From Tolypothrix carrinoi HA7290-LM1 (GTDB lineage: Bacteria; Cyanobacteriota; Cyanobacteriia; Cyanobacteriales; Nostocaceae): a stretch of DNA of 38,944 bases. The notes under the pieces are model-generated. The model was not told the origin of the DNA, did not search any database, and saw only the letters and a program-made list of their open reading frames with translations. The stretch spans positions 1-38,944 of the forward strand of contig JAHHIK010000081.1 in the NCBI GenBank assembly GCA_019358935.1. Direction: 5' to 3'. The position numbers and the translations under genes are program-made. Below are positions 9,656-31,548 of the stretch, piece by piece. The number at the start of each line of letters is the position of its first letter. Position 1 is the first letter of the stretch.

Positions 9656-9676
9656 CGGCTCTCGTATTCTTCTACT

Positions 9677-9693
9677 TTTGCAAAAAACGCAAA
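9677..9693. promoter_or_regulatory. LTTR box (T-N11-A dyad)
   Basis: TTTGC-AAAAAAC-GCAAA interrupted palindrome 22 bp upstream of the LysR start, in the divergent promoter. Confidence 0.7.
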
Positions 9694-9785
9694 GGTGTTT
9701 GGCGTAATAGCCATATTATCATTTTTTCTGAGTGGGATTATAGTTGAGATGTAGGAAATCAATGTGTAGCTTGAAGAAGGCACTT

Positions 9786-10430: not shown

Positions 10431-10465
10431 CGCCGATCATCAGAAGAATCTATTAGGAGGGTTCA

Positions 10466-11707
10466 ATGACCATGAAACCCACAGTCAACCACGCAATCGT
10501 CATTGGCGGATCGCTAGGCGGCTTGTTTACCGGGATCGTGCTGCGTTCCATTGGCTGGGATGTCGATATTTACGAACGGTCTTCCCACGATCTTGACAGT
10601 CGGGGTGGTGGTATTGTACTCCAGCCAGATGTACTAGAAGTGTTTCAACGCACTGGCGTTCGTTACGAAGAACCACTTGGTGTGGTAGCCCATGAGCGGT
10701 ATTATTTAAACCGCGATGGCAGCATCGCCCAACCCATGTCCATGCGTCAGGTGCTGACCTCCTGGAGTTTGCTTTATGGTTCGATGCGTCGGCATTTTCC
10801 GTCCGAGCATTATCACCAAGGTAAGACCCTAACTGACATCCAGCAGAATGGTGAGCGTGTCACTGCGATTTTTGCTGATGGCACTCAAGACACAGCTGAC
10901 TTGCTAATTGGCGCAGATGGGGGTGGCTCGACGGTGCGTCAGCAATTTTTACCGGATGTGCAATATCGGTATGCGGGTTATGTCGCTTATCGCGGCTTAG
11001 TAGATGAGACCAAACTAAATCGCGAAACTGCCGCTCTGTTTACTGAGCGCTTTGTTTTCTATCAATTCCCAAACTCCCACATTCTCCAATATGTCATACC
11101 TGGCGCAGATGAATCCTTGATATCAGGAGAACGCCGCTTCAACTGGGTCTGGTATGTCAACTATGATGAAGCCAATGAATTGCCTCGCATTTTAACGGAT
11201 AAAGTGGGGAAGCATCGCGATTACTCTATTCCCGCAGGGATGCTGGCACCAGATGTCGAGCGTGAAATGCGACGGTATGCAGATGCTGTGCTTGCCCCAC
11301 CATTCCAGAAGCTGATTGCTGCAACTACTGAACCATTTGTCCAGGCAATTCTTGACTTGAGTGTTAGCCAGATGGCTTTTGGGCGGGTAGCATTGGTTGG
11401 TGATGCAGCCTTTATTCCTCGACCACATACAGCAGCAAGTACCGCTAAAGCGGCGGCAAATGCGATCGCCTTAGCCGATGCACTAATTAAGCACAATCAT
11501 GATGTTATAAAAGCGTTGCAAGCCTGGGAGCCGATTCAAATGGCACACGGAAACCAACTTATGGCACACGGTCAGCTACTTGGCGATCGCTCTCAGTTCA
11601 GCTACGGGACTCTTCGGTATGGCGAGAACTTAGATACCTCAACATACGCCGTGAGGAAAGAAAGCGATCGCTACTTACATCCCAATAATAGAAGGGAACT
11701 ATCATGA
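10466..11707 (+). CDS. FAD-dependent aromatic monooxygenase (2,6-dihydroxypyridine hydroxylase-like)
   Basis: VIGGSLGGL, IGADGGGS, YAGYVAYRG, RRFNWVWY, LVGDAAFIPRPHTAASTAKA; GGAGG RBS. Confidence 0.9.
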   Translation: MTMKPTVNHAIVIGGSLGGLFTGIVLRSIGWDVDIYERSSHDLDSRGGGIVLQPDVLEVFQRTGVRYEEPLGVVAHERYYLNRDGSIAQPMSMRQVLTSWSLLYGSMRRHFPSEHYHQGKTLTDIQQNGERVTAIFADGTQDTADLLIGADGGGSTVRQQFLPDVQYRYAGYVAYRGLVDETKLNRETAALFTERFVFYQFPNSHILQYVIPGADESLISGERRFNWVWYVNYDEANELPRILTDKVGKHRDYSIPAGMLAPDVEREMRRYADAVLAPPFQKLIAATTEPFVQAILDLSVSQMAFGRVALVGDAAFIPRPHTAASTAKAAANAIALADALIKHNHDVIKALQAWEPIQMAHGNQLMAHGQLLGDRSQFSYGTLRYGENLDTSTYAVRKESDRYLHPNNRRELS

Positions 11708-13502: not shown

Positions 13503-14441
13503 TCAAGCTCCGGTACTAGTAGGATTTTGGGGTGGTGTTGTGACTGAAACAGGATTTTGCGGTGTTGTCGTGGGTGAAGCTGCGTTGATAGGCGATTCTC
13601 CTACATTTCTAGCAACTTCCATACCGTATTGTTCAAAAATCACGACTGGATTAGAACCTTCATTCATTTCAATACGTTTTACCAGTACACCATTTGCCAA
13701 TCGCTGTCCTGCCAGCACATACCGACTCGTTGGTTCATTTGGTACTTTGATAATTGCCTGGGGTTCTTGACCAATTAAAACTACACCTGTGACAAGAACT
13801 GCTCTTGCTAATTCAGGTTGTACTGGCGGTGGTAATACAGATACTAAAGTCGGGTTGGGGACAACTAAAGGCAAAACCTTGGGTACGACTGGAGTAAAAC
13901 CAGGGCTAGGTTTTGGTAGGCTACCTGAAGCGATCGCTCCTTTGTTTATTTTATTTATTTTATTCTTTTGTGCCCTCAAAAGTTGTGGCTGACTCGGTAT
14001 TCTAGTTTTGGCTGATATTACCGCGCTCGAGCGTGTGGGAAGTCTTCTTGACGTAATTATTGCACCCCTAGCAACTGGTAGGGGAGGTAACACCGGAACC
14101 GATCTGCCAAATGTAGTAGGCGTATTCGTGTTCGTGTTCGACGTGCTGGCATACGTCGGCGAGAAAAGTTGTCCAAACGGGTCAGGGCGACCTTTTGACA
14201 CTACAATTACCCGCTCTGTGGCATTAGTTGGTTGAATTAAGTTAGGAGTAGTAGAAGCTACTATTGGAGCCTGTTTAGCAGCTACAACTGGATTTTTAAA
14301 CGATTGAATCGCCGATGGGGACTGAGTTGGTGCGCTGTTGGGAGTTGGCGTAGGATTACTAGCTTGTTCTGATTCGTCAGCACAAGAGGCGATCGCTAAA
14401 GCTAAAATAGCTGCCACTACAATTTTTAAATTTCTGCCCAT
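13503..14441 (-). CDS. Lipoprotein with PilP/GspC-HR-like C-terminal domain
   Basis: Lipobox LAIASC, P/T-rich linker, GRPDPF motif, C-terminal beta domain VTGVV..PQAIIKVPNE..RYV.AGQRL.NGVLVKRI. The CDS is secure; the PilP resemblance is inferred. Confidence 0.8.
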   Translation of the reverse strand: MGRNLKIVVAAILALAIASCADESEQASNPTPTPNSAPTQSPSAIQSFKNPVVAAKQAPIVASTTPNLIQPTNATERVIVVSKGRPDPFGQLFSPTYASTSNTNTNTPTTFGRSVPVLPPLPVARGAIITSRRLPTRSSAVISAKTRIPSQPQLLRAQKNKINKINKGAIASGSLPKPSPGFTPVVPKVLPLVVPNPTLVSVLPPPVQPELARAVLVTGVVLIGQEPQAIIKVPNEPTSRYVLAGQRLANGVLVKRIEMNEGSNPVVIFEQYGMEVARNVGESPINAASPTTTPQNPVSVTTPPQNPTSTGA

Positions 14442-15393: not shown

Positions 15394-15744
15394 AGCACCG
15401 CTTTTATGAGTCAAACAGACAATGAAAAAGAGGGGGAAATATGAGTGTTTTTTATTTAGCTTTGGGATGACCTATAGCTGGAAAAAACTACCTAGACAAA
15501 AAATATAAAATTTGTTACTAATTATCAAACCGAAATTGTACTTAATTTTTATTTATTAATAATCGGGTTTTCGTCTAGAGATAAACTGAAGCTAAAAAGG
15601 ATTTATATAGATACGAGCAACTTTTTTCAGCAAAATTACTGAAATTTAAAAAAGTCATTCATGACATCTTTAAATTGGGGACGCTTGGATTAGGAACTGG
15701 GAAAACTTCTTGCCAATCGCTAGGACGCTTGATATTCACCCAAT

Positions 15745-15772
15745 AAAAAAAAAGGGCTGTGTAGCCCTTTTT
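15745..15772 (-). terminator. Terminator downstream of psbO
   Basis: AAAAAGGGCT-GTGT-AGCCCTTTTT with A/T runs on both sides. Another hairpin (TTGAGTA..TACTCAA, 15929-15957) abuts the psbO stop. Confidence 0.75.
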
Positions 15773-15964
15773 GGATTTAAATTGGTTGTGATGATGTCAG
15801 GTAAGTCAAATAAGAGCGCTTTTTAGCAGAAGAAAAGCCTTAGTCCCCTAGCATTTCTCAGATGAAATATGAAAGGGGAAGAAGGTGCGTGAGCCTGATT
15901 AACCTAAACATTGAACAAAATTACGGTTTTGAGTACCATTTATGTGTGGATACTCAATCTTGAT

Positions 15965-16795
15965 TTAGGCAGTTGGTTCAACCCGACCGTAAAACAGACC
16001 GCGAATTTTAACTTCTTTAGGTTCGCCAGCGCCTAAATCGGTATCGGAGGGCTGGTCACTCTCGAATGTACCAGCAATTTCACCAGTAGCACTGTCTACT
16101 TTGGCAATCGAGAGAGAAATTCTGCCTTTAAGAACTTCTGCACGCTTAACATTAGTTCGGGTAAGGTCTTTCTTATCTGCTTGGGCAGGGAGAGCCACAG
16201 CATTATCATAGCCACTGACGACACCGCGACCTTTAGGATCTAAAAAGGCAGCACCGCGATAAGAAGGAACTTTGAATTCGCCTTCAAAATCCGTGGAAGT
16301 ATTAATCGAAGTCAAACCAGGTTGTGATTTCGCAACCAAGTTTTTGATGGTGAACAGGAAAGGTACTCGTTCACCGCCAGGTAGTTGTACAGTGGTGGCT
16401 TGGAAGTCCAAACCATCTTTTTCCACAAAAGTCAAGCTTTTATCTGGGTTGACTTTTATATCGCCTTGCACCTGGTCAATGGTGGAAGTGTATCTGGTCA
16501 ACAATTTGCCCGCAATAAATTCAGCTTCTTGCCGTTTGTTAGCAGGTTCTTCTTTGATAAAGTAATTAGTCGGTTCCAAACACAGTTCTTTGAGCACGTA
16601 AGACTGGCTAGAATCAATGGGAATGGAACCACGGCTTGTTTCTGTTAATTGGGGGCATTTGTTAGCCAAGCCAGTGCCTCGAATTTGTTCGTAAGTGAGT
16701 AAATCCCTGCTGCTAGAAGAGGGAGCATCACTACAAGCTGTTATTAGTCCCAGGCATAAAGCCAAGAATGCAACAATTAAAGCGCGATACCTCAT
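15965..16795 (-). CDS. psbO: PSII manganese-stabilizing protein
   Basis: GTGLANKCP, LLTRYTSTIDQ, GGERVPFLFTIK, FLDPKGRG, QPSDTDLG; ATG 16795 (MRYRAL). Confidence 0.99.
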   Translation of the reverse strand: MRYRALIVAFLALCLGLITACSDAPSSSSRDLLTYEQIRGTGLANKCPQLTETSRGSIPIDSSQSYVLKELCLEPTNYFIKEEPANKRQEAEFIAGKLLTRYTSTIDQVQGDIKVNPDKSLTFVEKDGLDFQATTVQLPGGERVPFLFTIKNLVAKSQPGLTSINTSTDFEGEFKVPSYRGAAFLDPKGRGVVSGYDNAVALPAQADKKDLTRTNVKRAEVLKGRISLSIAKVDSATGEIAGTFESDQPSDTDLGAGEPKEVKIRGLFYGRVEPTA

Positions 16796-17297
16796 GGTCA
16801 ACCTCAATTTCGTCAAAAATTAATATCTCAGTTGTAAAACTGGGTAGGGTCAAGGAAAATATGGCTATTCTTCTTGTCCCATCCGAAGCAGTGCGTGGGA
16901 TTTTTACCCCACACGGCTACAATCATGCGTTTTTACCCTTTTGTCATTATCGGGCTTCAGGCTGCCATCAGTAACAGTTTTTTCGTCATGGCATAGCATC
17001 CATAGCGTAGACAAAAGTCTTTGGTTGTTACGTAGATGTCGCCACTACATGTCTTATGGAATTAAACTATGCCAGATCATACGATTTTTTTTAAGGAAAA
17101 ATCTAAGGACTTTGATCTAAGGCAGGAAAATAGCGATCGCTTAGACGGTCATCCGCTCGATTCCCACCCCAAAAAAGTTCGCCTTGAGAAGCGTTTGTGT
17201 TTTCTTGCCCTGATGCTGTAAATCTCTGTCCAGTCTTCTCATCAAGCGATTTGCTGGCTGACTCGTAATATTCTGATTTATAACTTTAGCAGTGATG

Positions 17298-20200
17298 TTA
17301 CTGATTTTTACAGACCGTAAGTTTTTTTTGCTCCTCTGGGTGATTGGCGAGGTAATCTTTAAGCCAGGTACAGCCCCTAGTGATTAATTTGTCTAAGTCC
17401 TGTAATTCATCAAAACTGGACAATTGTACGGTACCATCCTGCCCGGATGTCACCACCCCATGTCCATCAGGGATAAAATTTACACTCCAAATTGTGGCAT
17501 CATGATTGGTAGGAAACTGCATGAGCGGTTGCCCAGATAAGTCCCAAAACCTAACTACATAGTCTGTTCCTGCGCTAACTAGGTGCTTTCCATTCGGACT
17601 AAAACTAATACCATAAACTTTACTTTGATAGCTTCTCATCACAGCAAGTTGTTGTCCAGAGAGATTCCATAGTCTAACTGTGCGATCGTGTCCTGCTGTC
17701 GCAATAGTTTTCCCATCTGGACTAAATTTGACACGATAGATAGGTCCTGCATGACCCTTCATTAAGGCTAGTTGTTTTCCAGCTAGATTCCACAGACGAA
17801 CCGTACCGTCAAATCCTGCTGTCGCAACGATTGGCTCAACTAAACTAAAACTTACACGCAGAACTCCCCCATAATGCCCTTTTAACAGACGTATTTCTTT
17901 CCAAGAATTGCCAGAAAATTGATAAATTCTTGCTCCATCATCGTTAGCTGTAGCAATGAACTGATTATCTCGGCTAAAACTAACATCTCCACCTGCATTA
18001 TCGTAGCCTTTCAAAATTGCTACCGTTTGTCTTGAGGCAAGATTCCAAATTCGGACTGTAGCATCCCTTGAAGCGCTGGCAAGAAGCTGTCCATTTGGGC
18101 TAAAAGTTAATTTTTCAACGTGCCATCTATGACCGTTTAACACAGCCAGTTGTTTGTTTGATGGGTATTCGTAAAGCCGAACGGTATTATCCTGTCCTGC
18201 GGTAGCCATTACTTTTTTATCTGGACTAAAAGCCACATCTCTAATACCTTCCCACTCACTTCTAAATAAAGTCCTCGATAAAACTGTTTGCTTGTTTGAG
18301 AGGTTCAAAAGTCTGGCTCTACCATCAAATGCTGAGGTAGCAATATAATTGTCATCTGGGCTAAGACTTGCTCTAGCAACACCCCCGACTAAAAGCTTGA
18401 ACTTATTCAATATAGTTGGTTCATTTAAAAGGTTATCCCAAAGTCGAACTGTATCTCCTCCTGCCATCATCAAGTGCTTTCCATCTCGACTGAAACTGAT
18501 GCTTTTTACCCATTCCTCACCAGAATCAAATTGTTTCAGCATCTTTCCTGAGATATCCCAAATTCTTGCCACACCATTTCCATCAGAAGCAGCAATATAC
18601 TTTCCGTCTGGACTGAACGCTGAAGCCCCGGCTGAACGATCTACTAATGACAACGATTGCTGTGTAGATAAATTCCAAAGTAAAATTTTGTCCTCTCCTG
18701 TCGTCACCAAATGTTGTTCATCTGGACTAAAATTCACACTCCAGACTTGTCCTTGACTATTTAAGGTAGCTAGTTGCTTTCCTGACCAGTCCCAGATTTT
18801 GACTTGATTGTTATTAGTGCCTCCTACTGTTGCAATGAGTGGTTTTTGATTCTTGCTAAAACTGAAGCTAATAATTGGACTGCCATATGCTGGAGATTGA
18901 GTTACTATCTTCTGTTGTGACCAGTCCCAAAGTCGAAGTTTATCATCTTTACCTGCTGTAAATAGATACTTTGAATCGTTATTAAACCATGTAATCGAGT
19001 CTCCTGGTGCTTGCAATTGAGTTTGTAGTTTTCCAGACAGATTCCAGATGCGGATGATACCATCTACTCCTGTTGTAGCTAGATATTTTCCATCTGGACT
19101 AAAACTTACATTGTTGACCCTACCTTGATGACCGGAAAATTGATTTTGTTCGTGAATTTTTTGTATAATCGTCCATAGAGCGAGTAGAACACTGCCTGGA
19201 TATTCTTTAACGTCTTTTTCACTCAACAAGGTTTTTAACTCTTGTCCGCTTTGCATAGCTAAAAGTAAAGCGGACATTTGATCGTCAGACTCAAATTGTT
19301 GGATAGCTTCATTGGCTGCTTTTTCGATTTTTTTGATTTGAAGTTCTCTTGATGCTTTTTTTATATCTGTTTGTGCTATTTTAGCTTGATTTTCAGCCTG
19401 TTTTTGTCTTTCTATTGCTTGTTCTTCTTTTGCTTTAGCTTCTTTTACTTTTTGTTTAGCTTCATCAACTATCTGGTCTGATTCTCCTTGTACAGATTTA
19501 AGTCTTAGTTTTGCTTGCTGAGTTTCTTCATGGGCAATTTCGGCTTCTTGCTTTGCGTTCTCTGCTGCAAATTGGGCTTGAACTGCCCCTAATTTTGACC
19601 TATCGTTATCTTGTTTGGCTCTATCAGCTTCTTGTTTGGCTTTTTCAGCTTCTCGTTTTGCCTTATCTTGCTCTTTGTTTGCTTTTTCCGTGATTTCCTT
19701 GGCTTCTAGTTTGGCATCTGTGGCTAATAATTCTTGCGCTTTAGCATTCATAAAAGCCTTACTCGCATTCATAAAAGATGCGCCTGCTGTCAGTATGGCG
19801 ACTCCAACAAGAAAAGAAGTTACAATTACGATAATACGTCCTCTTTTAATCCTGGTTTCTACTTCTTTTTCGGCTTCTATTAATCTTTGGTTAACTTGTT
19901 TCTCTTGCTCTCGATAAAGTGCTATCTGTTGCTGTGCTTGTGCTAAATCTTCTTCAAATTCTCGATTTTCTAACTCCTGACAAGCAGCTAAAAATTGATA
20001 ATCTCGATCGCTTAAACTTTTTCCTGCTGACCATTTGAGTGCTTGCTGTAATTTTTCTCCCCGCAAGAGTTGAGACTCATCTCGATTGTGGTCAGCTACC
20101 CAAGCAGCTAATGCCTGAACATAAAAATCAGGTCGCAGTTGTGTTAGTTTCACATCAACCCAAGATAAATTAAAGACAGATTCGTAAATTCGGTTATAGG

Positions 20201-21242
20201 TTTTTAACTGACCTTGACGAGCAACAACTAACCCTGATAGCCTTAAAGTCATGTGTTCGGGGGTATTATCTGCTACGATCGCTCCTTGCTGTAAAATTTG
20301 TTGATATAATCCCAACAGACGACTGGCTTTTAGTTGATCGCTGAGGATACGATCGCGAATCGTTCGCAAATGTTCTTGAAGCTCTTGTGATTCCCAACTT
20401 TGCAGAATATGCGATCGCACTAACTCTTCAATGACTGCCGCTTCTTTCCCTGCATTAATAAAAGATGAAGATTCAACTACTATTTGACATAGTTTTTGGG
20501 TCAGATATGGTTGCCCACCTGTCCAGTCTAAAATTGCTTGCAGAAGCGATAAAGGCTGCTCAACTTTTCCTTCTAATCCCTTAGCTAGTGGCTGGACTTC
20601 TTCTAACTTGAAGCCATACAAATCAATCGCTCTACCAATATTAAATGGGGTGCGTTGTTTATCCTCAATTAAATCCGAAGGGGTGGCTACTCCAATCAGC
20701 GCAAAAGATAGGCGTTTCAAAGCTGGATTGTCAGGACGTTGATTATAAAAAGCGCGAATCAAAGCAAAAAAATCATCCTTAAAGTCAAATTTGAAAATAC
20801 TGTCAACTTCATCGATAAAGATGACAATCTGCTGCGGAATTTCCACTAACAGCACTTCTTCGATAAACTCTGCGAAACGTTCAATTAGGGATAATTCCTC
20901 GCGTTCGTACCACCACTCTTTAACTTTAATTTTGATTCCCAGACTTTTTACCAACCTAGTGACAAAGCTGATATACCATTCGCCTGGGGTAATATTGTGA
21001 GTGCCAATAGCGCTAATATCAATCACACCACAGGCAATATTTTCTTTTTGCAGTCGAGCCATTGCTTGTACACGCAGGCTAGATTTGCCCATCTGTCGGG
21101 AATTTAACACATAACAGAATTCATTTTCTTTAAGAGCGTCATAGAATTGCTCATCGCACGATCGCACCACATAGCTGGGAGCATCTTTTTCCAAGCTTCC
21201 ACCGACTTTATATTTATATGTAAAGTTAGGTGCGCTACTCAT
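17298..21242 (-). CDS. AAA_35-type STAND ATPase - TM - coiled coil - WD40 repeat protein
   Basis: VGGSL..YVVR, NSRQMGKSSL (Walker A), IVIFIDEVD (Walker B), WTGGQPYLTQ, hydrophobic helix IIVIVTSFLVGVAILTAGASF, A/K/E/Q coiled coil, about 13-14 GH..FSPDG..W repeats. ATG 21242 preferred. Confidence 0.93.
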   Translation of the reverse strand: MSSAPNFTYKYKVGGSLEKDAPSYVVRSCDEQFYDALKENEFCYVLNSRQMGKSSLRVQAMARLQKENIACGVIDISAIGTHNITPGEWYISFVTRLVKSLGIKIKVKEWWYEREELSLIERFAEFIEEVLLVEIPQQIVIFIDEVDSIFKFDFKDDFFALIRAFYNQRPDNPALKRLSFALIGVATPSDLIEDKQRTPFNIGRAIDLYGFKLEEVQPLAKGLEGKVEQPLSLLQAILDWTGGQPYLTQKLCQIVVESSSFINAGKEAAVIEELVRSHILQSWESQELQEHLRTIRDRILSDQLKASRLLGLYQQILQQGAIVADNTPEHMTLRLSGLVVARQGQLKTYNRIYESVFNLSWVDVKLTQLRPDFYVQALAAWVADHNRDESQLLRGEKLQQALKWSAGKSLSDRDYQFLAACQELENREFEEDLAQAQQQIALYREQEKQVNQRLIEAEKEVETRIKRGRIIVIVTSFLVGVAILTAGASFMNASKAFMNAKAQELLATDAKLEAKEITEKANKEQDKAKREAEKAKQEADRAKQDNDRSKLGAVQAQFAAENAKQEAEIAHEETQQAKLRLKSVQGESDQIVDEAKQKVKEAKAKEEQAIERQKQAENQAKIAQTDIKKASRELQIKKIEKAANEAIQQFESDDQMSALLLAMQSGQELKTLLSEKDVKEYPGSVLLALWTIIQKIHEQNQFSGHQGRVNNVSFSPDGKYLATTGVDGIIRIWNLSGKLQTQLQAPGDSITWFNNDSKYLFTAGKDDKLRLWDWSQQKIVTQSPAYGSPIISFSFSKNQKPLIATVGGTNNNQVKIWDWSGKQLATLNSQGQVWSVNFSPDEQHLVTTGEDKILLWNLSTQQSLSLVDRSAGASAFSPDGKYIAASDGNGVARIWDISGKMLKQFDSGEEWVKSISFSRDGKHLMMAGGDTVRLWDNLLNEPTILNKFKLLVGGVARASLSPDDNYIATSAFDGRARLLNLSNKQTVLSRTLFRSEWEGIRDVAFSPDKKVMATAGQDNTVRLYEYPSNKQLAVLNGHRWHVEKLTFSPNGQLLASASRDATVRIWNLASRQTVAILKGYDNAGGDVSFSRDNQFIATANDDGARIYQFSGNSWKEIRLLKGHYGGVLRVSFSLVEPIVATAGFDGTVRLWNLAGKQLALMKGHAGPIYRVKFSPDGKTIATAGHDRTVRLWNLSGQQLAVMRSYQSKVYGISFSPNGKHLVSAGTDYVVRFWDLSGQPLMQFPTNHDATIWSVNFIPDGHGVVTSGQDGTVQLSSFDELQDLDKLITRGCTWLKDYLANHPEEQKKLTVCKNQ

Positions 21243-21244
21243 AA

Positions 21245-23380
21245 CTAATTTTTTAGATGAATGCGGAAATAATCGCGATACATATCGCAACGTGGTATAG
21301 CTTCATTACCTTGCAGTTTGATCAGCCCCATACTATCCAGTTTAAATGTAGCTTCGTTGCCCAATTCTAAAGGTTTACCTTTGAACGCAATCTGACGTAA
21401 AGCTTCAGCTAAAGCTGGATACTGTTGAAGATTCAATAAGTGTCGTCGGAGATGATCGCTATAAATTCCAGCTTCGGTAGGGGCAGTTTGTAGCAATTGC
21501 TCCCAGGTTAGATCCTGCTTGCGTAGGTGATAGAATGCTTTACGTATTAAGTAAGGATGTCCGCCAAGAACTGCAAGCAGTTGTTGCAGTTGAAGTTCTG
21601 ATAATAGTAATCCATATCTTTGTGCTAAATCCTGGACTTGAGCAGGGATAAATTCTGGTAACTCAACGTTTTTCCCTACATTAAACGGTGATTGATTGAT
21701 GTTTAAAGGTATGTAAACTTCAGTGGAGTGGACAACTACTAAGCGCAGTTTTTCCCACAATTCGCTGCTAAAATCGCCGTAGCGGGCAGACTCGTACCAA
21801 GAACGCACTAAACCAAAAAAGTCATCAGCAATTTCACGATGGGGAAATACGCGATCAACTTCATCCAATCCTAAAACTAAAGGAGTATCGATTTCTGTTA
21901 ATAAACATTCTTCAAAATAGTAAGTACATCTGTCGTTACCGTCATGGTCTTGCCAATAATCTTCTAAGCGATGCAGTCGTTCTAATCTGCGACCTACTTG
22001 TTGACAAAGCCAGCGCAATAAGTAATCAAGATTGGTAAACAGGCGGTTATCAGCACGTTGCAAACTAATCGGTATAGTTTGATAGCCTTGTTCGCTGGCA
22101 TAATTCAGAATTCTTGCCATTAGAGAAGTTTTTCCCATCTGTCGGGGAGCTTTAATCCGGATTAAGGCTCCTGGTTGGATAATTTCGGCAAAACAGTCGG
22201 TTTCGATTGGGAAACGCTCCACATACAAACCAGAACGCAGTGGTACTGTTCCTCCTGGTTCTCTATTTAACTCTGGTTCTGCTACAGGTAGAGGTGGGCG
22301 ATCGGGGTTATCTTGAGGACAGATACATATGGTGTTTACTGCTAACTCAGCGTTTTCTAGTTTGGGCGGTGTTGTACCTGATGCCACAATGCGGAGAATT
22401 TCCTCTATAATTACAGGGGTATCTTCAGAAGAATGCCACTCCCGTTGCTGAATTTGATTGAGATAACCCCGCAGTTCGTAGTTAAGGGGCAAATCTAGGG
22501 AAAAGTTGACGCGAATGGGGAGAATAATCGGCTTTTGTTCTGGGTGGGTATCTCGCAATTCTCTGGCACGCTTTACCTCTTCAATTACCATTTCACTGAC
22601 GACAGATTGAGGTGATAAAAGTAGCAAAAAGTAATCACAGCGTCGTAATTCTGCATCAATGCGCTGCACCCAGTTTTCACCTAAGCGAATACTCTCAGCT
22701 GCCATAAAAGCTTGATGTCCAGCACTGGTTAAAGCTTCATAGAATTGTTGAGCAAGATTGCGATCTGGTTCTTGAGTCCGATAGCTGATAAATACGCTTT
22801 TCGGCGTTTTTTTGTCGGCAATTAAGCGCTGATTGATTTTTAAGACTGGTATTTCTGATTCTGGGATACCTTCTAACTCAATAGCATTACAGCCAAATTC
22901 ATAGGCATCTTCAATGGATCTTCCCGCTCCCAACCCATCATAAAAACCAATGGCAAATTCTCGTGCAGCTTTATCTCCAATCGCCTGACTCATGCCAATG
23001 ACATAATCGATGTGTTGGTGAATTGCCTCTGCCTGCACCTTGGAATAGCAGGCATTTAGCAAAACACACTCAATACCCTTAAATAACTTAAATAATCTGG
23101 ACAATGATTCCGCACTGATTAATTTAGCTTGTCCTGTGTCATTTTCTAATGCCAAGCCTTGATTGCCAGATCCGTGCCCAGAAAAATGGACAATCTGAGG
23201 ATCGCAATCCAAGAGAGTACGACGCAGATCGTCAGGACGGACTGCCCATCTGGTAATTATTTCAAACTGTTCGCGCTTTTTGGCTCGTTCCAATCCTGCT
23301 TGGATTTCCCGAAGCTCTTCATCTAAGCGTAGCCTATCCGTATTTTTCGGATTGGCTGTCAAAATTAGAATTTTTTTCAC
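21245..23380 (-). CDS. CHAT protease - TIR - AAA_35-type STAND ATPase fusion
   Basis: CHAT: ILILTANP, IVHFSGHG, LLNACYS. TIR: VFISYR, YFLLLLSPQSVVSEMVIEEV. ATPase: KAPRQMGKTSL, LVLGLDEVD, QSPFNVG, GGHPYL. GTG start. Confidence 0.93.
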   Translation of the reverse strand: MKKILILTANPKNTDRLRLDEELREIQAGLERAKKREQFEIITRWAVRPDDLRRTLLDCDPQIVHFSGHGSGNQGLALENDTGQAKLISAESLSRLFKLFKGIECVLLNACYSKVQAEAIHQHIDYVIGMSQAIGDKAAREFAIGFYDGLGAGRSIEDAYEFGCNAIELEGIPESEIPVLKINQRLIADKKTPKSVFISYRTQEPDRNLAQQFYEALTSAGHQAFMAAESIRLGENWVQRIDAELRRCDYFLLLLSPQSVVSEMVIEEVKRARELRDTHPEQKPIILPIRVNFSLDLPLNYELRGYLNQIQQREWHSSEDTPVIIEEILRIVASGTTPPKLENAELAVNTICICPQDNPDRPPLPVAEPELNREPGGTVPLRSGLYVERFPIETDCFAEIIQPGALIRIKAPRQMGKTSLMARILNYASEQGYQTIPISLQRADNRLFTNLDYLLRWLCQQVGRRLERLHRLEDYWQDHDGNDRCTYYFEECLLTEIDTPLVLGLDEVDRVFPHREIADDFFGLVRSWYESARYGDFSSELWEKLRLVVVHSTEVYIPLNINQSPFNVGKNVELPEFIPAQVQDLAQRYGLLLSELQLQQLLAVLGGHPYLIRKAFYHLRKQDLTWEQLLQTAPTEAGIYSDHLRRHLLNLQQYPALAEALRQIAFKGKPLELGNEATFKLDSMGLIKLQGNEAIPRCDMYRDYFRIHLKN

Positions 23381-23636
23381 TGTGTCGCTGCTGTGGAAAT
23401 TGATTTTGTATTATGGATTAGGCGTAATGTTTTTCTAATAGTGGCAGCATATCAGCCATTGTCACATTCTCCTCAACCGCCTTGAGGATAAGCTTTTTAC
23501 TTTATTTTCTCTGTTTTTAGCTTGCATCTTTGACAAGTTGCTCTTTTTTTTAACTTGTCATTAATGGGGATATACTTTACCTTTCATGCTTTATACTTCA
23601 TCCTTTAAGTGACCTCCTAAACAGATATACGGTGGC

Positions 23637-23978
23637 ATGAACAACGGCATTAATGTTGAACAAGAGAAGTTGTCTTTTAAATTGCAAGCGATCGCAACTG
23701 CGGTACATGATGCATCGGAAATTTGTCAAGGGGATACTATTGCGCTTTTGGCGTTGCTACGGCAGTTAGAACAGTTACACCGAGAGATCCGAGATGGGGT
23801 ATTTCAAGAAAGTTTGCCTGATAACCGTCAAGCACTGTACGCACTCCTGAAAGACATTGAGTCTGAGGGGGGCTGGCCCTATATTGAGCGCATGAGGCTA
23901 CAAGCCTATATAGCAAATATGCAGCAAGAAGAGCGGCAAGAAAACGAGGAACTGAAACAGAAGCGATCGCAACCTTGA
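23637..23978 (+). CDS. Conserved cyanobacterial helical hypothetical protein
   Basis: LLALLRQLEQLHREI..FQESLPDNRQALY.LL.DIE.EGGWPYIERM. Confidence 0.85.
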   Translation: MNNGINVEQEKLSFKLQAIATAVHDASEICQGDTIALLALLRQLEQLHREIRDGVFQESLPDNRQALYALLKDIESEGGWPYIERMRLQAYIANMQQEERQENEELKQKRSQP

Positions 23979-24166
23979 TTGGTAATGGGGCATGGGGCAT
24001 GGGGAATGGGTAATTGGGAATTGGTAATTGGGCATGGAAGGAATCCTATTAGAACGCGCATTACGTTCTTGAGTTTTTTTAATTCCCATTGCCCATTACC
24101 CATTACCCATTACCCATTACCCATTACCCATTGCCCATTGCCCATTGCCCAATGCCCTATGCCCAA
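23979..24166. repeat. Inverted arrays of heptamer tandem repeats (STRR type)
   Basis: Left arm (TGGGCAT/TGGGAAT/TGGTAAT)n about 23979-24037; right arm (CCCATTA/CCCATTG)n about 24085-24166; central AGAACG-N7-CGTTCT hairpin plus T-run. Confidence 0.9.
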
Positions 24167-27100
24167 TTAGCGCCTTTGAGTAATATCATCACACATATGG
24201 CGATCGCGCTCTTCAACATTGTGGTTGTGCTTGAGGTAATCACTCATCCAGCTACAACCACGAACTAGCAGGTCGTCTAAATCTAAATTCCACAAAATTA
24301 TCGTGTTGTCATCACTAGCCGATGCTAGTGTATTACCTTGTGGGCTAAAGCTGACACTTAATACTGCACCAGTATGTCCGTTGAGGGTTTTGATCAATTT
24401 GCCTTCATGACTCCAGAGTTTGACAGTGCTGTCCCAACTAGCAGAGGCTAGAAGTTCACCGTTGGGACTAAAAGTGACAGCGTTAACACTATCGCTGTAC
24501 CCCCTTAACAAGGTTTTCAACAACGTACCATCCCAGCGCCACAGCTTAACTGTGTTGTCCCAACTGGCAGAAGCTAGCAGGCGATCGGTAGGGCTAAAAC
24601 TCACGCCTAAAACCCAACTTTCATGGGGTAAAAAACTTTTTAACAAAGTACCATCCCGTCGCCAAAGTTTGACTGTTTGGTCATCGCTGGCAGAAGCTAT
24701 AACTCGACCATCGGGACTGAAATTAACGCTATTTACCCAACCCTGATGTCCTTTTAAGGTTTTTAGCAAACTCCCGTCACGATTCCAAAGTTTAATTGTC
24801 TTATCTTTAGAAGCTGATGCCAGTAACTGACCATCGGGACTGAAACTGACACTCATCACACTATTACTATGCCCTTGGAGAGTATGAAGTAAAGAGCCGT
24901 CGCGTCGCCAAAGTTTCACAGTTTTGTCATAACTTGCTGATGCTAGTACTTGACCTGTTGGGTCAAAAGTGACACTAGGAACTCTATCAGTATGTCCCAA
25001 GAGAGTTTTATAAAGTCGAGTGACAATGCCTTTATTAGTAATTTCTCGTTGCCAGAGTTTGACAGTGCGATCGCGACTGCCTGAAGCTAATATTTTGCCA
25101 TCCGCACTCCAAGCAACGCTCAAAACACGATCCTTATGTCCAGTAAGGATGGGCAGCCTGGGAGGATTTAAACTCCATAGTTTTACGCTTTTGTCGTAAC
25201 TTGCTGATGCCAAAATTTTGTTATCTGGGCTGAAAGCGACACCGGCGACAGCATCGCTATGTCCTTTCAAGGTTTTAAGTAACGTACCGCGAACACTCCA
25301 GACGTTGATGGTATTGTCATCACTTCCTGAGGCTAGCTGTTGACCATTGTCACTGAAACTGAGGCTCCAAACTGGACTTGTATGCTGCCGTAAAATTCTG
25401 TAAGGACGAAACTTGAGGACATCTTGAGTACTCTTGCCACGTCGCCAAAGCATCACTTTTTTGTCTCGACCTGCTGATGCTAACAGTTGACCGTCGGGGC
25501 TGAAATCGACAACAGTCACGCCCTTTTGATGTCCTAACAAAGTTGTAACTAAACTACCGTCTCGGCGCCAGATTTTTACTGTTTTGTCATCACTTGCCGA
25601 GGCGATGAACTTACCATCGGGACTGAAAGTTACCCAATTAACCCATCCTTTATGTCCCCTCAGTATTTTTACTAAAGTCCCGTCGCGCCGCCAAAGTTTG
25701 ATGGTTGCGTCTTTACTGCCAGTAGCTAACAACTCACCGTCAGGACTGAAATTAACGCTATAAACCCAATCACGGTGTCCTTTTAAGGTTTTGTATGGTT
25801 GGGGGTCAAATTCGCCATTGATGGGGTTTCTGTGCCAAATCAGCACTGTTTTGTCGAGACTGGAGGAAGCCAGAGTTTGACCATCGGGGCTGAAACTAAC
25901 GCTGCTAACAGCATCGCTATGACCTTTAAGGGTTTGGAGTAAGGTGCCGTCAGGACGCCACAGTTTCACTGTTTTGTCGCGGCTACCTGATGCCAGTAAC
26001 TGACCATCGGGGCTAAAACTTATACCCCAGACAATATCAGCATGTCCTTCCAAGCGGTTTAACTCAGTTACTCCATAAACTGCCTGCTGGAGTGCTGTCA
26101 CTACCCGCATCCGAGTATCTGGTTGGATTTTATCTGCAATTTTGAGTCGTTGCCAAGCCCGCAAACTTTCTAAGAGAGCATCAAACTCTTTATTTGAGGC
26201 AAATAGCGCTTCACTAGTAGCAGTGAGGGCACTAATTTTAAAGTTGCTTTCGCTGCGTTCGGCTCGTAAAGTTTGGAGAACTGCGGCTCTTTTTTGTGAG
26301 TCTGCTTGCCACCATAATGTTGCAATTGTGCCTAGCATGATGAAGAGCGATAAGCCTGCTATGCGTGCTTCTCGCAGTCGGCGATGCAAAACTAAATTTA
26401 ATTGCTCTTGAGAGAGTTTTTGAGCTACTTCTGCTCTAGTTTTTTCAAAGCGAACTTTTTCGAGTTCGGCGACCATTCCATAATCGTTTTTTTGGCGAAT
26501 TGGTTCAACTAAATAATCGTGAACTAGCTGGTAGCGATCGCCTGACTCTTCCCATATTCGCAATACTAAGCCTGAACCCACCAAAATGTCTAAAATCAAT
26601 TCCATCGAGACATTCATTGGCGTAATTTCTTCTTTTTTATTGTCTTTCTCTGACTCGACTTCTTCTATCTCTACAGGAAATTCCTCTTCACCGCCTTTTA
26701 GAGATAACTCGTTGTCTCCTATTACCACAGTCACCAAATCAGCTTTTGTTTTTAATGGTCTTGTGCCTTTTTCATCAGTTAACTCAAACAATAATTTCCA
26801 ACTAAGTTGTTCGTTTTCTTGACCGCAATCTTTAATTACTTCCTCAAGCCATCGCTGTACTAGTTTTTTCGACCCGCCACAAAGCTTGTATTGTTCAAGT
26901 GTGGTAATGTTTTCTGCTTGAAGTTGAGCGCCGACTATTTGTAATTCTATTGGATGTACTTCGTCCAGTTCTCCTGCTAAATCCTCGACTAGTTGGTGAA
27001 TTAATTCATCAGTTAGTTCATAATGCGAACGTTGAGTCAAACTGTGGATAATGCTGATTGCATCTTGGCTAGAGAAGTTTCCTAAGTAGTAACGAATATT

Positions 27101-29353
27101 CTTATCGAGAATATTTTTATTAATTATTCCTAAATCGGACAAATTACCGTGCTGTTTTTCTTGGCTCAAACGTTCAAATTCTAATAAATAATGTAAATAA
27201 TCTTCTCTCAAAGAAATAATTATTTTTACAAAGCAAATATTGATACATTCGCTAAAAAATTTGTAAAACTCTCTTATTTCTTGGGGATGCTTATTAATAA
27301 AAAACAATTCTTCCATCTGGTCTAATATAATAACTATTATATGATTGCGCTCGGCTAACAACCGAATTTTTTCTAGCAGTATGCTGGAAGAATTTTCTTT
27401 AATAATTGAAAGTTCCGTTTGTACCAATGCCTTATTAATAGTACGTCTTAAAGCTGTAAGCCAATCAGTATAAACAGATAATACAATCGGCAAAGGTATG
27501 CGTTCGCCAATTACTTTTTCCTTCAAAACTGGTACTAAACCAGCTTTGAGAATTGAACTTTTACCAACGCCTGAGGGTCCATGAATTACTGTAAGTTTGC
27601 AGTCAGCACGGGTAATTCTTTCAATCAAGCGATTGATATCTTGCTGTCTTCCAGAAGCGGCTATTTCCTGAGCAAGTCCCGACTGATTAAACGGTCTTTT
27701 TTGCGGCTCCAAAACTGAATTAATTCTGTAGCGTTGTGACTGTAATTGACTAGGACCGATAAAGGCGCGAAAGCCGTACTGATGTTCTATTTGAATTTTT
27801 TCTTGCTTGAGGCTAAAAGCTTCGGTGTAATCATGACGCCCAAAAAAGTAGAGCGATCGCAACTGCTCTAAAATCTGCAAATATAGCGATGGCTCGTATT
27901 GTACTTCACAAACTACTCTCGCCCATTCCAGATTATTGATGGCTTCCTCACACTCACCCAAATGTCGCTGAGTGCGTGCCAGCAATAAAAGATACCAACT
28001 TTCCTGCTGTCGGGAAACGTCGGCGGCATTTTCGGAAATAGAAAGTGCTGTATTTGCTAATTCATGAGCTAGTAACCAATTAGACTTAGAAGCCGCCACA
28101 TCTGCTAAAAAACCATAATCTTGAGCCACTTGTGCGGGAGTACCATAAGTTTCATGCAGTCGCCGAGACTTTTCGGCTAATTGCTGCAATTCTTCCCAGG
28201 CTTGTAGGCGTTGTAGCATATCAAGCGCAGGCAAAATAAACTTAGCAACTAAGTCTTTTCTTTGCGCTGTTTCCAATACCTCAAGACATTGCTTAAACCA
28301 CAATAAAGCATCTTGCCAGTAGGTTTTGCCCAGAGTTGGGTGTAAGTCTGCCATCCGGCGATAACACAGCCCTAGGTGGAATAGTACTACCGCCTGTCCA
28401 AGTTGGGGGGATGGGATGGGGAGAGGGGGGGATGAGGGAGATGAGGGGGATGGGGGAGATGGGGGGGATGAGGAAGATGGGGGAGAAATAGTAGTCTTTT
28501 CCTTGTCCTCCTTGTCCTCCTTGTCCTCCCTGTCCCCTTCCCTGCTCCCCCTGTCTCCAAGGAGTCCCCTTGCCTCGTTCCAAAGTGCTAAACTTTTTTG
28601 ATAATGAATTAAAGCATCATCTATTTGGTCGTCGGCGTATTCGTCACGCCCCAATACGAATTCTAAACTCGCTTCTAATTCTGGTTCTAAAGTGACGTTA
28701 TATAGGCGTTGCAAATCATTACGGGCTGACTCAATTTCGCGGCGATGTTGAGATTTGGGAGCTAAATCAAGAGCAGCATTAGATAAAAAGTTTTCGGCAC
28801 CGGCTTCTAAAACTTTGGCAAAGATAAATTCTGTTTCTTGCTGCACCAAAGTAATTAAATCGTATGCAGCCATTTCAAATTTAATGGTGGTTGCCGCCCA
28901 GCTTTTAAAATCGGGTGCTAACCGAGAAAGCGATGTTGCTACTTCATCTTGTAGCCATAAAACTAATGGAAAAGGAAGACTCGTAGCGTAGATATCTCGT
29001 GCTTGGTTGATGTTAGTGAGTAAGTCTTCGAGGTCAATTACTGATTCTAGACCAGAAACCATCACAGCTGACGGTAATGAATCTGTGGCAACGGTAGGAT
29101 TATCTAGAAATAGTTCTGAAATTATTGTGGTGTGTAAGGCAGTAGTTGATGGCTGAAGAAAGATTTCTCGTAAATTGATATCTTTGGTGAGAAAGCGCAG
29201 ATGCTCCAACATTGAAGAGCGTAATTGCTGATAATTGCACCTAACTAAAATCAGGGCAAATTGATTTTTTGAAAGTGCGATCGCCCGAATCAGCCTTTGT
29301 AGAGAATGCTGATTTTCGCTTTGTTTGCTTGCATGTGTTAATTGCCATGTCAT
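24167..29353 (-). CDS. Degenerate P-loop domain - TPR-like - nSTAND1-type ATPase - TM - WD40 repeat protein
   Basis: N-terminal FALILVRCNY..VMVSGLE..FPLVLWL..APDFKSW without GKS/T; TPR-like helices; HGPSGVGKSSILKAGL and IILDQMEELF; YQLVHDYL; TM IAGLSLFIMLGTIATLWW; about 14 regular WD40 repeats. Confidence 0.93.
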   Translation of the reverse strand: MTWQLTHASKQSENQHSLQRLIRAIALSKNQFALILVRCNYQQLRSSMLEHLRFLTKDINLREIFLQPSTTALHTTIISELFLDNPTVATDSLPSAVMVSGLESVIDLEDLLTNINQARDIYATSLPFPLVLWLQDEVATSLSRLAPDFKSWAATTIKFEMAAYDLITLVQQETEFIFAKVLEAGAENFLSNAALDLAPKSQHRREIESARNDLQRLYNVTLEPELEASLEFVLGRDEYADDQIDDALIHYQKSLALWNEARGLLGDRGSREGDREDKEDKEDKEKTTISPPSSSSPPSPPSPSSPSSPPLPIPSPQLGQAVVLFHLGLCYRRMADLHPTLGKTYWQDALLWFKQCLEVLETAQRKDLVAKFILPALDMLQRLQAWEELQQLAEKSRRLHETYGTPAQVAQDYGFLADVAASKSNWLLAHELANTALSISENAADVSRQQESWYLLLLARTQRHLGECEEAINNLEWARVVCEVQYEPSLYLQILEQLRSLYFFGRHDYTEAFSLKQEKIQIEHQYGFRAFIGPSQLQSQRYRINSVLEPQKRPFNQSGLAQEIAASGRQQDINRLIERITRADCKLTVIHGPSGVGKSSILKAGLVPVLKEKVIGERIPLPIVLSVYTDWLTALRRTINKALVQTELSIIKENSSSILLEKIRLLAERNHIIVIILDQMEELFFINKHPQEIREFYKFFSECINICFVKIIISLREDYLHYLLEFERLSQEKQHGNLSDLGIINKNILDKNIRYYLGNFSSQDAISIIHSLTQRSHYELTDELIHQLVEDLAGELDEVHPIELQIVGAQLQAENITTLEQYKLCGGSKKLVQRWLEEVIKDCGQENEQLSWKLLFELTDEKGTRPLKTKADLVTVVIGDNELSLKGGEEEFPVEIEEVESEKDNKKEEITPMNVSMELILDILVGSGLVLRIWEESGDRYQLVHDYLVEPIRQKNDYGMVAELEKVRFEKTRAEVAQKLSQEQLNLVLHRRLREARIAGLSLFIMLGTIATLWWQADSQKRAAVLQTLRAERSESNFKISALTATSEALFASNKEFDALLESLRAWQRLKIADKIQPDTRMRVVTALQQAVYGVTELNRLEGHADIVWGISFSPDGQLLASGSRDKTVKLWRPDGTLLQTLKGHSDAVSSVSFSPDGQTLASSSLDKTVLIWHRNPINGEFDPQPYKTLKGHRDWVYSVNFSPDGELLATGSKDATIKLWRRDGTLVKILRGHKGWVNWVTFSPDGKFIASASDDKTVKIWRRDGSLVTTLLGHQKGVTVVDFSPDGQLLASAGRDKKVMLWRRGKSTQDVLKFRPYRILRQHTSPVWSLSFSDNGQQLASGSDDNTINVWSVRGTLLKTLKGHSDAVAGVAFSPDNKILASASYDKSVKLWSLNPPRLPILTGHKDRVLSVAWSADGKILASGSRDRTVKLWQREITNKGIVTRLYKTLLGHTDRVPSVTFDPTGQVLASASYDKTVKLWRRDGSLLHTLQGHSNSVMSVSFSPDGQLLASASKDKTIKLWNRDGSLLKTLKGHQGWVNSVNFSPDGRVIASASDDQTVKLWRRDGTLLKSFLPHESWVLGVSFSPTDRLLASASWDNTVKLWRWDGTLLKTLLRGYSDSVNAVTFSPNGELLASASWDSTVKLWSHEGKLIKTLNGHTGAVLSVSFSPQGNTLASASDDNTIILWNLDLDDLLVRGCSWMSDYLKHNHNVEERDRHMCDDITQRR
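28405..28574. repeat. In-frame G-rich/C-rich 9-mer repeat tract inside the CDS
   Basis: (GGGGATGAG-like)n 28405-28485 facing (CCTTGTCCT-like)n 28500-28558; encodes EDKEDKEDKE..SPPSSSSPPSPPSP. Confidence 0.85.
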
Positions 29354-29487
29354 AACTAAAAACTGGGCTATTAAATAAAGAGAAAAAATGCCACATCAAA
29401 AATTCAAACATACGCGCTACAGTATGTTTGAATTTCTCAGTTGTTGTATATACAGCTAAGACCAGAGATGCATCGCTGTGAGAAAGC

Positions 29488-31526: not shown

Positions 31527-31548
31527 GCGATAATTCATGAATTATCGC
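31527..31548. repeat. Perfect 22-bp palindrome, REP-like
   Basis: GCGATAATTCA|TGAATTATCGC followed by TAC. Confidence 0.7.

Follow-up and report, generated by a model that had tools for sequence, protein, structure and literature searches.

The locus considered here raises the question of what two adjacent genes, each encoding an ATPase of its own, could be doing together in the chromosome of a cyanobacterium. The genes, designated A and B, both lie on the minus strand, in the order A then B, within a 38,944-nucleotide stretch of Tolypothrix carrinoi HA7290-LM1 DNA (contig JAHHIK010000081.1 of assembly GCA_019358935.1, positions 1 to 38,944), and this whole stretch, which was the object of the present analysis, is hereafter called the window. 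The product of gene A carries a CHAT domain and a TIR domain ahead of its ATPase, and the product of gene B carries its ATPase ahead of a hydrophobic helix, a stalk and a long WD40 repeat region. An earlier, sequence-only reading of this DNA had proposed that the pair is an NLR-like system divided into effector and sensor subunits. Taken together, the results described below make it, on balance, probable that genes A and B are an accessory module of two paralogous STAND-like ATPases, which likely act as one transmembrane receptor–effector complex and for which defence or cell death is the most likely role.

Two paralogous ATPases with divided domains

All four Pfam families that the sequence-only reading had expected (CHAT, TIR_2, AAA_35 and WD40) were found in the products of the two genes. 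In the gene A product, the matches covered residues 7–159 for CHAT (4.9e-11, spanning only profile positions 83–258 of 289), 196–314 for TIR_2 (1.2e-20) and 375–706 for AAA_35 (4.2e-136), and the PADLOC profile “chat” matched the first of these domains at 1.1e-19. The motifs noticed earlier were all present, namely, HFSGHG at residues 65–70 and LNAC at 108–111 in the CHAT domain, and SEMVIEEV at 262–269 in the TIR domain. More than 120 homolog clusters shared the gene A architecture at 56–70% identity, and these were cyanobacterial wherever named; likewise, the named relatives of both subunits among the listed matches (the best 41–120 per search) were all cyanobacterial, one member of the Sericytochromatia included. 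In an alignment of 120 sequences, consisting of gene A and 119 homolog clusters, the CHAT residues His69 and Cys111 were kept in 118 and 120 sequences, respectively, and Glu268 of the TIR domain was kept in 119. The intact His/Cys pair and the glutamate at the usual catalytic position were thus confirmed, and, to judge from these residues, neither domain appears to be catalytically dead.

The nearest solved relative of the CHAT domain was PDB entry 8tl0, the title of which refers to an activated SAVED-CHAT filament. It matched at 3e-11 by sequence, with its HFIGHG and LNAC motifs aligned with His69 and Cys111, and by fold with a root mean square deviation of 2.7–2.8 Å over 188–190 columns (25–26% identity). 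From the sequence and the structural model, the CHAT domain is predicted to possess a catalytic His-Cys dyad in a caspase-like fold. Glu268 of the TIR domain aligned with a glutamate of the TIR chains 7uxr and 9mud, which we take to be their catalytic residue, and the domain gave fold matches to the TIR domains of SARM1 and SPARTA; it is accordingly predicted to keep the conserved catalytic-position glutamate after the third strand. No sensor domain was found in gene A, and no effector domain in gene B.

The ATPase of each subunit belongs to the AAA_35 family (PF14516). Against a cut-off of 27 bits, gene A scored 453.6 bits over profile positions 2–330 of 331, and gene B scored 125.4 bits over positions 4–329, the latter match (2.9e-36) occupying residues 31–373 of the open reading frame (ORF) read from its TTG start. 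An RQMGK-type motif occurs in each, as had been noted before. Members of the family fall into two classes, a canonical one (S), to which gene A belongs, and a divergent one (W), to which gene B belongs. In gene A, K417 of Walker A and D506/E507 of Walker B were kept in 120 of the 120 aligned sequences, and a GGHPYL motif was nearly invariant; in gene B, Walker A (RQMGKSS), Walker B (DEVD) and a GGQPYL motif, which is conserved in the W class, are all intact. The GKT/GKS and DE motifs are invariant in both classes, and a profile–profile alignment of S with W extended over the whole module with a probability of 99.9% at 22% identity.

A search of PDB sequences with the AAA_35 profiles returned nothing beyond P-loop-level matches to RecA and DnaB. 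The AlphaFold2 model of the gene A ATPase module, with a mean predicted local distance difference test score (pLDDT) of 88.8, consists of a P-loop domain, a helical domain and a winged helix. Its best Foldseek matches were the archaeal ATPases 2fna and 2qen (TM-score 0.60), followed by ORC/Cdc6, Avs3, Avs4, NRC4, Roq1, RPP1, CED-4 and Apaf-1. The full-length model of gene A (pLDDT 79.8; predicted TM-score 0.48) has three domains joined by low-confidence linkers, and its best fold match was the plant TIR-NLR RPP1. STAND proteins are reportedly built of a P-loop NTPase, a helical domain with a GxP motif and a winged helix, a fold common to AP-ATPases and NACHT proteins, and are said to be fused to N-terminal effector or adaptor domains and C-terminal repeat or sensor domains. 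The earlier description of the ATPases as STAND- or NLR-like is supported by the modelled fold and the motifs; since the best matches are 2fna/2qen and ORC/Cdc6, the AAA_35 module may stand either inside the STAND class or beside it. The STAND-type pattern of effector and sensor fusions is seen across the A/B pair and its family, and here it is divided between two proteins.

The 25 AAA_35 matches of this genome illustrate the two classes. Those of the S class (Pfam 1e-108 to 1e-148), with one exception, form the C-terminal end of short proteins, whose other domains are CHAT-TIR (two proteins), CHAT (two), an XRE-type helix-turn-helix (HTH) or some 140 residues of unknown kind. Those of the W class (1e-25 to 1e-36) form the start of long proteins, mostly with WD40 and once with CHASE2. 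The S-class exception, locus L018 (G000, contig C139, 113–2182), has an AAA_35 module cut by the contig start and followed by two CHAT domains, the reverse of the order in gene A. For eight of the nine S genes in this genome, a W gene was either adjacent or no more than about 2 kb away on the contig, and five W genes stood without an S neighbour.

At 80 related loci from other cyanobacterial genomes, the S gene had a W gene after it in the same orientation in 75 cases, and three of the five loci that departed from this order had less than 1 kb of downstream sequence. The pairwise distances of S and W modules were strongly correlated (27 pairs, r = 0.954, a value reached by 0 of 2000 permutations), with the reservation that this mirror-tree test leaves in the shared ancestry of related loci, which inflates r. 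Additionally, at least 19 of 41 long S-module proteins hold both modules in one chain, in both orders: seven are of the type Trypsin-TIR-S-W-helix, one is S-W-helix-WD40, and at least 11 are W-(CHAT)-S. By the classical fusion argument, such proteins suggest that both modules work together. The conserved order, the co-divergence and the fusions identify the two genes as one conserved functional unit, in agreement with the sequence-only reading, which had seen them 2 bp apart, as the junction confirms.

The survey of exchanged N-terminal effectors recommended in the earlier reading showed trypsin, kinase, HTH, cyclase and EAD1 domains as S-side outputs beyond CHAT and TIR, and CHASE2, peptidoglycan-binding, PF12849/PF01094 and PAS/GAF domains were found as W-side inputs beyond WD40. 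With outputs and inputs so varied, the AAA_35 platform may serve general signalling beyond immunity. Scored database relatives with E ≤ 0.001 numbered more than 4,500 for one subunit and almost 8,000 for the other, and the number of gene A matches per genome ranged from 0 to 40 among 30 relatives. The split effector/sensor architecture proposed earlier stands, with the amendment that A/B belongs to a large family of paired AAA_35 proteins in cyanobacteria, and that immunity is not the sole possible role of this family.

Several observations on related pairs are worth recording. The variant closest to the TIR and ATPase parts of the window was L028 from Nostoc sp. NIES-4103 (6374–8518 and 8458–11112), in which the S gene encodes Trypsin-TIR-AAA_35 and its W partner has a second trypsin domain between two hydrophobic helices; by comparison with this variant, gene A looks like a domain-shuffled form in which CHAT has replaced trypsin. 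At L014 (G000, contig C101), of the CHAT-AAA_35 subfamily, a 206-aa HSDR_N-like gene (3.5e-8; 4369–4989, minus strand) lies between the S and W genes, and in 44 of the 75 related pairs at least 600 bp separate the end of the S ORF from the start of the W module, which is room for a third gene. A paralogous pair on contig C91 was considered as a recent duplicate, its A subunit being 68% identical, and was rejected: its partner is only 59% identical in the ATPase and ends in a thermolysin-type peptidase domain in place of WD40 repeats.

Membrane topology of the gene B product

The hydrophobic helix of gene B, IIVIVTSFLVGVAILTAGA, has a 19-residue Kyte-Doolittle mean of 2.51 and is directly preceded by RIKRGR, just as the sequence-only reading had described; its flanks contain five Lys and Arg residues on the N-terminal side versus two on the C-terminal side. 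The stalk that follows was previously described as a coiled coil of about 150 residues. A stretch rich in Ala, Lys, Glu and Gln does exist (115 of the 202 residues printed), with a length closer to 190 residues, and its composition would suit a coiled coil as well as a single charged helix. The WD40 region (Pfam 2.2e-94, eight stretches above threshold) was resolved by eye and by pattern into 14 units at residues 681–1276, all without Cys, in line with the earlier count of 13–14; this number would be enough for two 7-bladed propellers. The only Cys residues after the helix are the two of the C-terminal tail (RGCTWLKDYL...C), placed 20 apart. Most of the complete WD40 partners end in the same two-Cys tail, as does the nSTAND1 protein encoded by the neighbouring gene; the motif of this tail is G-C-x-W/R-L-x-x-Y-L with the second Cys 17–20 residues on (e.g., L045, L051, L058 and L081). 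This conserved end of the WD40 part may be a disulfide-closed cap.

The helix is a regular attribute of the W partners. Among 74 W-type ORFs of the related loci, 70 were long enough for judging it, and a hydrophobic helix was located no more than 110 residues past the W module in 64 of these, farther on in four, and nowhere in two. In such partners, the WD40 repeats were replaced by CHASE2, by four PG_binding_1 domains, by a thermolysin-type domain, by a trypsin domain flanked by two helices, or by Ig-like parts with several helices after them. When the W relatives among the wider database matches were sorted by the domain that comes after the W module, the helix accompanied CHASE2 in 6 of 7 cases, PG_binding in 4 of 4, PF12849 in 3 of 4 and PF01094/PF13458 in 1 of 1, the last two being presumably periplasmic-binding-protein families. 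It was absent before protein kinases (Pkinase, 0 of 26), PAS/GAF (0 of 3) and PF02492 (0 of 3). In sum, 14 of 16 proteins with domains of the former kind possess the helix, versus 0 of 32 with those of the latter.

The distribution of cysteines points in the same direction. In 31 complete WD40 partners with a single helix, Cys density was 1.18% before the helix and 0.29% after it, and in 20 of these 31 exactly two Cys residues, those of the conserved tail, occur after the helix. This pattern fits an oxidising compartment beyond the helix. Because the helix tracks the class of the attached domain, the propeller of gene B is, with moderate confidence, probably extracytoplasmic, in the periplasm or possibly in the thylakoid lumen, and the earlier proposal of an extracytoplasmic propeller, which would be a type II topology with the C-terminal domain on the trans side, receives indirect support from the domain swaps, the helix-to-domain correspondence and the Cys pattern.

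The accessory segment and its surroundings

The gene content of the window (ndhCKJ, rubredoxin, ycf48, psbO, ftsQ, ftsZ and gshB) marks it as a piece of a cyanobacterial chromosome. The distance from psbO to ftsQ is 15.5 kb here versus 8.7–10.8 kb in five genomes of the same genus. On BLASTN comparison of window positions 15500–33500 with the five same-genus loci (L108–L112), homology at 88–95% identity stopped at 17140 and resumed at 23604 in four of them and at 23611 in the fifth. The intervening segment, which contains only genes A and B with their flanks, was absent at this site in all five congeners, where 216–293 bp of unrelated filler was found instead, so the locus does not behave as a housekeeping one. 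In the same-genus genomes searched, there was no full-length gene A match above 48% identity, and the nearest gene A relative in those searches was the paralogue in this genome (68%).

An assembly artefact was ruled out as the source of the segment by metagenome contigs of two other runs, which bridge both junctions at about 98% (X3) and 94–96% (X5) identity; one X3 contig bridges the A/B junction too. The palindrome GCGATCGC, presumably the cyanobacterial HIP1 repeat, is found at the left break of homology and in several copies in the filler of two relatives (L108/L109), which hints at recombination at such sites. Reading of the junctions revealed no target-site duplication or terminal inverted repeat, a systematic repeat search not having been made, and the filler of the relatives, when compared with the window by BLAST, matched it only twice, over 19–21 nt and at chance level.

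The features of the segment are collected in Table 1. The gene B ORF opens with TTG at 21290, and its first ATG, at 21242, gives a product of 1314 aa; the start was set at this ATG because database protein P0128, 98% identical to the gene B product, has the same length. Promoter-like hexamer matches were no commoner in the region than in shuffled sequence.

Table 1 Position of genes A and B, their predicted domains and the surrounding sequence elements in the window
Feature	Position	Strand	Basis
Gene A, CHAT-TIR-AAA_35 (S-type) effector subunit, GTG start, 711 aa	21245..23380, including stop codon	-	ORF and Pfam
CHAT (caspase-like) domain, gene A residues 1–185, His69 and Cys111	22826..23380	-	Pfam, PADLOC, PDB sequence and fold match
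TIR domain, gene A residues 194–335, Glu268	22376..22801	-	Pfam TIR_2, PDB alignment, fold match
S-type AAA_35 NTPase module, gene A residues 375–706	21263..22258	-	Pfam, AlphaFold2 model, Foldseek
A/B junction: TAG of A (21245–21247), 2 bp, ATG of B (21240–21242), ...AAT TAG TT ATG...	21240..21247	-	Sequence
Gene B, W-type AAA_35-helix-stalk-14 WD40-Cys-pair tail, 1314 aa	17298..21242, including stop codon	-	ORF and Pfam
W-type AAA_35 NTPase module of gene B	20172..21200	-	Pfam 2.9e-36, profile–profile match to S-type
Single hydrophobic helix IIVIVTSFLVGVAILTAGA, RIKRGR directly before	19779..19835	-	Kyte-Doolittle
A/K/E/Q-rich stalk, about 190 aa	19203..19778	-	Composition
14 WD40 repeats	17415..19202	-	Pfam WD40 and propeller families, repeat listing
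C-terminal 38-aa tail with two Cys	17301..17414	-	Sequence
Promoter-like hexamer pair upstream of gene A (consensus match only)	23410..23437	-	Consensus scan
Terminator-like hairpin and T run, about 105 bp past the gene B stop (consensus match only)	17180..17193	-	Consensus scan
Accessory segment, 6463 bp, only genes A and B and flanks	17141..23603	.	BLASTN versus L108–L112
GCGATCGC palindrome at left break of homology	17133..17140	.	Junction reading

A neighbouring gene at 24167–29353 (minus strand) encodes a 1728-aa protein with TPR, nSTAND1 (4.3e-29) and 14 WD40 repeats. A hydrophobic stretch, IAGLSLFIMLGTIATLWW, below the Kyte-Doolittle threshold of 1.6, lies between its NTPase and propeller, and its tail carries the two-Cys motif RGCSWMSDYL...C, as in gene B. 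Directly upstream of this gene, the ORF at 29488–30828 (minus strand) encodes a P-loop protein of 446 aa whose only matches, to KAP_NTPase and nSTAND5, are weak, and the two genes may be a pair of their own. Both were considered as parts of the module and rejected, being kept at 90–95% nucleotide identity in the five congeners that lack it. The nSTAND1 protein resembles the gene B product in its NTPase, hydrophobic stretch, 14 WD40 repeats and two-Cys tail; unlike A/B, it is a single chain of the nSTAND1 family with no enzymatic effector, and it is kept in all five module-less congeners.

Elsewhere in the window, minus-strand ORFs of 860 aa (5955–8537) and 312 aa (13503–14441) had no Pfam match at E ≤ 0.001. 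At 23850–24183, the summed contig depth in the metagenomes was 3730 (X2), 1592 (X3), 369 (X5) and 76 (X6), versus single- to low-double-digit values nearby, and many loose ends and short joints were found at 24000–24168 in the metagenome contigs; a short sequence at 23850–24183 apparently occurs in many copies in these metagenomes.

Possible function and relation to known systems

A model that would accommodate these results is as follows. Subunit B would be a membrane-anchored protein whose ATPase lies in the cytoplasm and whose stalk and double propeller lie on the far side of the membrane, and subunit A would be soluble, with the CHAT and TIR domains ahead of its own ATPase. A cue bound by the propeller would change the nucleotide state of the B ATPase and make it assembly-competent, after which B would seed or enter a hetero-oligomer that includes the ATPase of A, by analogy with NAIP-NLRC4 or with sensor/helper NLRs. 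In such an assembly, the clustered CHAT and TIR domains could be activated by proximity, resulting in proteolysis and in NAD+ cleavage or signalling. Activation through assembly is also a property of solved TIR assemblies. It applies as well to the SAVED-CHAT protein of type III CRISPR, the closest solved relative of the gene A CHAT domain, since the title of 8tl0 speaks of an activated filament; in that protein the trigger is the SAVED sensor, the ligand of which is cyclic oligoadenylate, and in A/B the module of assembly would be the ATPase pair. Since a protease and a TIR domain are the outputs of a locus that varies between relatives, the role regarded as most likely is defence of the abortive-infection type or a regulated death of cells in the filament.

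A number of observations weigh against this interpretation. PADLOC named no system and gave only domain-level matches (“chat”, the ThsB TIR, and HEAT-ARM_XIII on the WD40 part), with no Avs match and no system-specific profile for A/B, so the PADLOC check suggested earlier did not assign the pair to a known defence system; NCBIfam also named none, its matches being limited to TIR and far below the cut-offs. The neighbours of the segment are psbO and cell-division genes and no classical defence island, and the kinase, HTH and cyclase outputs of the AAA_35 family fit general signalling equally well. As for the pairing, apart from the inflation of the mirror-tree correlation mentioned above, a W neighbour was present for only 9–10 of 20 S genes with other N-termini in a second sample (the fetched stretches of 14 relatives); for this reason, the pairing is regarded as characteristic of three subfamilies (CHAT, CHAT-TIR and trypsin-TIR) and not of all S genes. 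As for the topology, a cytoplasmic location is the classical one for WD40 propellers, the positive-inside bias is modest (family means of 3.4 versus 2.2 Lys and Arg residues), and the helix is also met with GUN4 (11 of 11), TPR-only (3 of 3) and CHAT (2 of 2) partners. Because domains of these three kinds are usually cytoplasmic, the helix may not always divide compartments, or its far side may not be the periplasm.

These observations can be read in three other ways. That the two proteins act independently, with adjacency being a legacy of tandem duplication, would be compatible with a complete ATPase module in each of them, with the five unaccompanied W genes of this genome, and with the roughly half of the other sampled S genes that lack a W neighbour. 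It is nevertheless highly improbable in view of the order and strand kept in 75 of 80 loci, the gap of only 2 bp, the co-divergence of S and W across paralogous subfamilies despite their 22% identity, the repeated fusion of the modules, and the division of sensor and effector between the two products. A second possibility concerns the helix, which may only tether the complex to the cytoplasmic face of the plasma or thylakoid membrane, or be re-entrant, with the WD40 repeats being cytoplasmic sensors of the Apaf-1 kind. The WD40 sensors of known STAND proteins are cytoplasmic, among them the propeller sensors of bacterial Apaf-1-like proteins, as described in a 2026 STAND survey in Nature (PMC13581612); 6 of the 27 WD40-type relatives lack a nearby helix (21 of 27 have it), and the GUN4, TPR and CHAT partners are again in favour of it. 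We consider this arrangement distinctly unlikely, given the contrast of 14 of 16 with 0 of 32 between the domain classes, the four-fold Cys depletion of the post-helix part, which nonetheless retains a conserved Cys pair, and the signal-anchor form of a single 19-residue helix with a basic N-terminal flank.

The remaining alternative is that A/B is a general transmembrane signalling device, in which a cue from the environment or the envelope would be sensed by the outer domain, the paired ATPases would be the switch, and the CHAT and TIR domains would be regulated signalling enzymes, acting through limited proteolysis and an NAD-derived messenger, and not killers. The outputs (HTH, protein kinase, cyclase and EAD1) and inputs (CHASE2, peptidoglycan-binding, PF12849/PF01094 and PAS/GAF) borne by the same S/W platform, as well as the many copies per genome, reminiscent of sensor kinases, speak for this reading. 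At the same time, CHAT and TIR domains with intact catalytic residues are the usual effector set of known conflict systems, and presence or absence between close relatives, together with the sharp expansion and contraction of the family, is the pattern of conflict genes. Furthermore, the EAD1 fusion ties the family to an adaptor network that, in the part of the paper available, was assigned to conflict systems (Kaur et al. 2020, PMC7159879). A purely signalling device is accordingly judged rather unlikely, and defence or regulated cell death is retained as the preferred role of A/B.

In the literature, no published description of AAA_35 pairs was found, and the family may go under other names; the designation AAA_35 was absent from PMC7159879, from PMC8195603 (one supplementary file aside), from the text and supplements of PMC13581612 and from the text of PMC10907252. 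The nearest published idea found is the nSTAND2 two-gene operon, described in the part of Kaur et al. 2021 (PMC8195603) available as a mobile operon with two STAND-type (nSTAND2) products, a predicted hetero-multimer and variable effectors. A/B is like it in having two genes, two STAND-type cores and variable effector domains. According to the same part of that paper, the nucleoside triphosphate-binding motifs of one nSTAND2 partner differ, whereas A and B both keep Walker A and Walker B, and the operon as described there has no membrane-spanning sensor, whereas A/B has a predicted one. The NTPase families are also different, to judge from the Pfam matches: nSTAND2 (PF20702) was neither among the six families of gene A (the complete set) nor among the 25 listed of the 50 families of gene B. 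PF20702 matches an unrelated protein of this genome (protein 24).

Among single-chain systems, Avs1-5/7, bNACHT and Apaf-1-like proteins resemble A/B in having an effector at the N-terminus, then a STAND-like ATPase, and a sensor made of repeats at the C-terminus, and Avs3 and Avs4 were fold matches of the gene A ATPase model. A/B differs from them in being split over two genes, each with an ATPase of its own, and in having a membrane helix between the ATPase and the sensor of B. The available part of PMC13581612 describes bacterial Apaf-1-like caspase-STAND-WD40 proteins with propeller sensors, which also combine a caspase-like protease with WD40 repeats.

The eukaryotic parallels lie in the division of labour, two paralogous STAND-type ATPases being assigned to sensing and to execution in paired and helper NLRs. 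In NAIP-NLRC4 and in plant sensor/helper NLR pairs, such paralogues are thought to co-oligomerise, and the plant pairs are encoded by adjacent genes; chains of plant TIR-NLR and NRC resistosomes were also fold matches of the gene A model. The differences are that the ATPases of A/B belong to AAA_35, neither NACHT nor NB-ARC being among the Pfam matches of gene A, that the sensor of B is predicted to be membrane-anchored with its repeats outside the cytoplasm, and that A has a protease and a TIR domain together. In terms of its sequence features, A/B could be described as an NLR-like STAND system that is divided between a sensor and an effector subunit and has become a putative transmembrane receptor.

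To our knowledge, descriptions of NLR-like immunity in bacteria have until now been of cytoplasmic sensing by a single chain. It is possible, and is put forward here as a tentative idea only, that the paired AAA_35 proteins represent a third, unrecognised mode of bacterial trans-membrane signalling, in which a swappable outer sensor and a swappable inner output are joined by nucleotide-driven hetero-oligomerisation. If so, the outer sensors would be WD40, CHASE2, peptidoglycan-binding and other domains, and the inner outputs would be CHAT, TIR, trypsin, kinase, HTH and cyclase domains; A/B would then be an “outside-in apoptosome”, with a periplasmic propeller triggering a cytoplasmic caspase-like protease and a TIR enzyme. 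Such a mode would amount to a Toll-like logic in bacteria, that is, an outer sensor with an inner TIR domain, built of STAND parts, and would at the same time be a bacterial counterpart of the sensor/helper NLR pairs. The presence/absence polymorphism between close relatives offers a ready genetic control, and one characterised pair would annotate thousands of genes that are presently named only “AAA-like domain-containing protein.”

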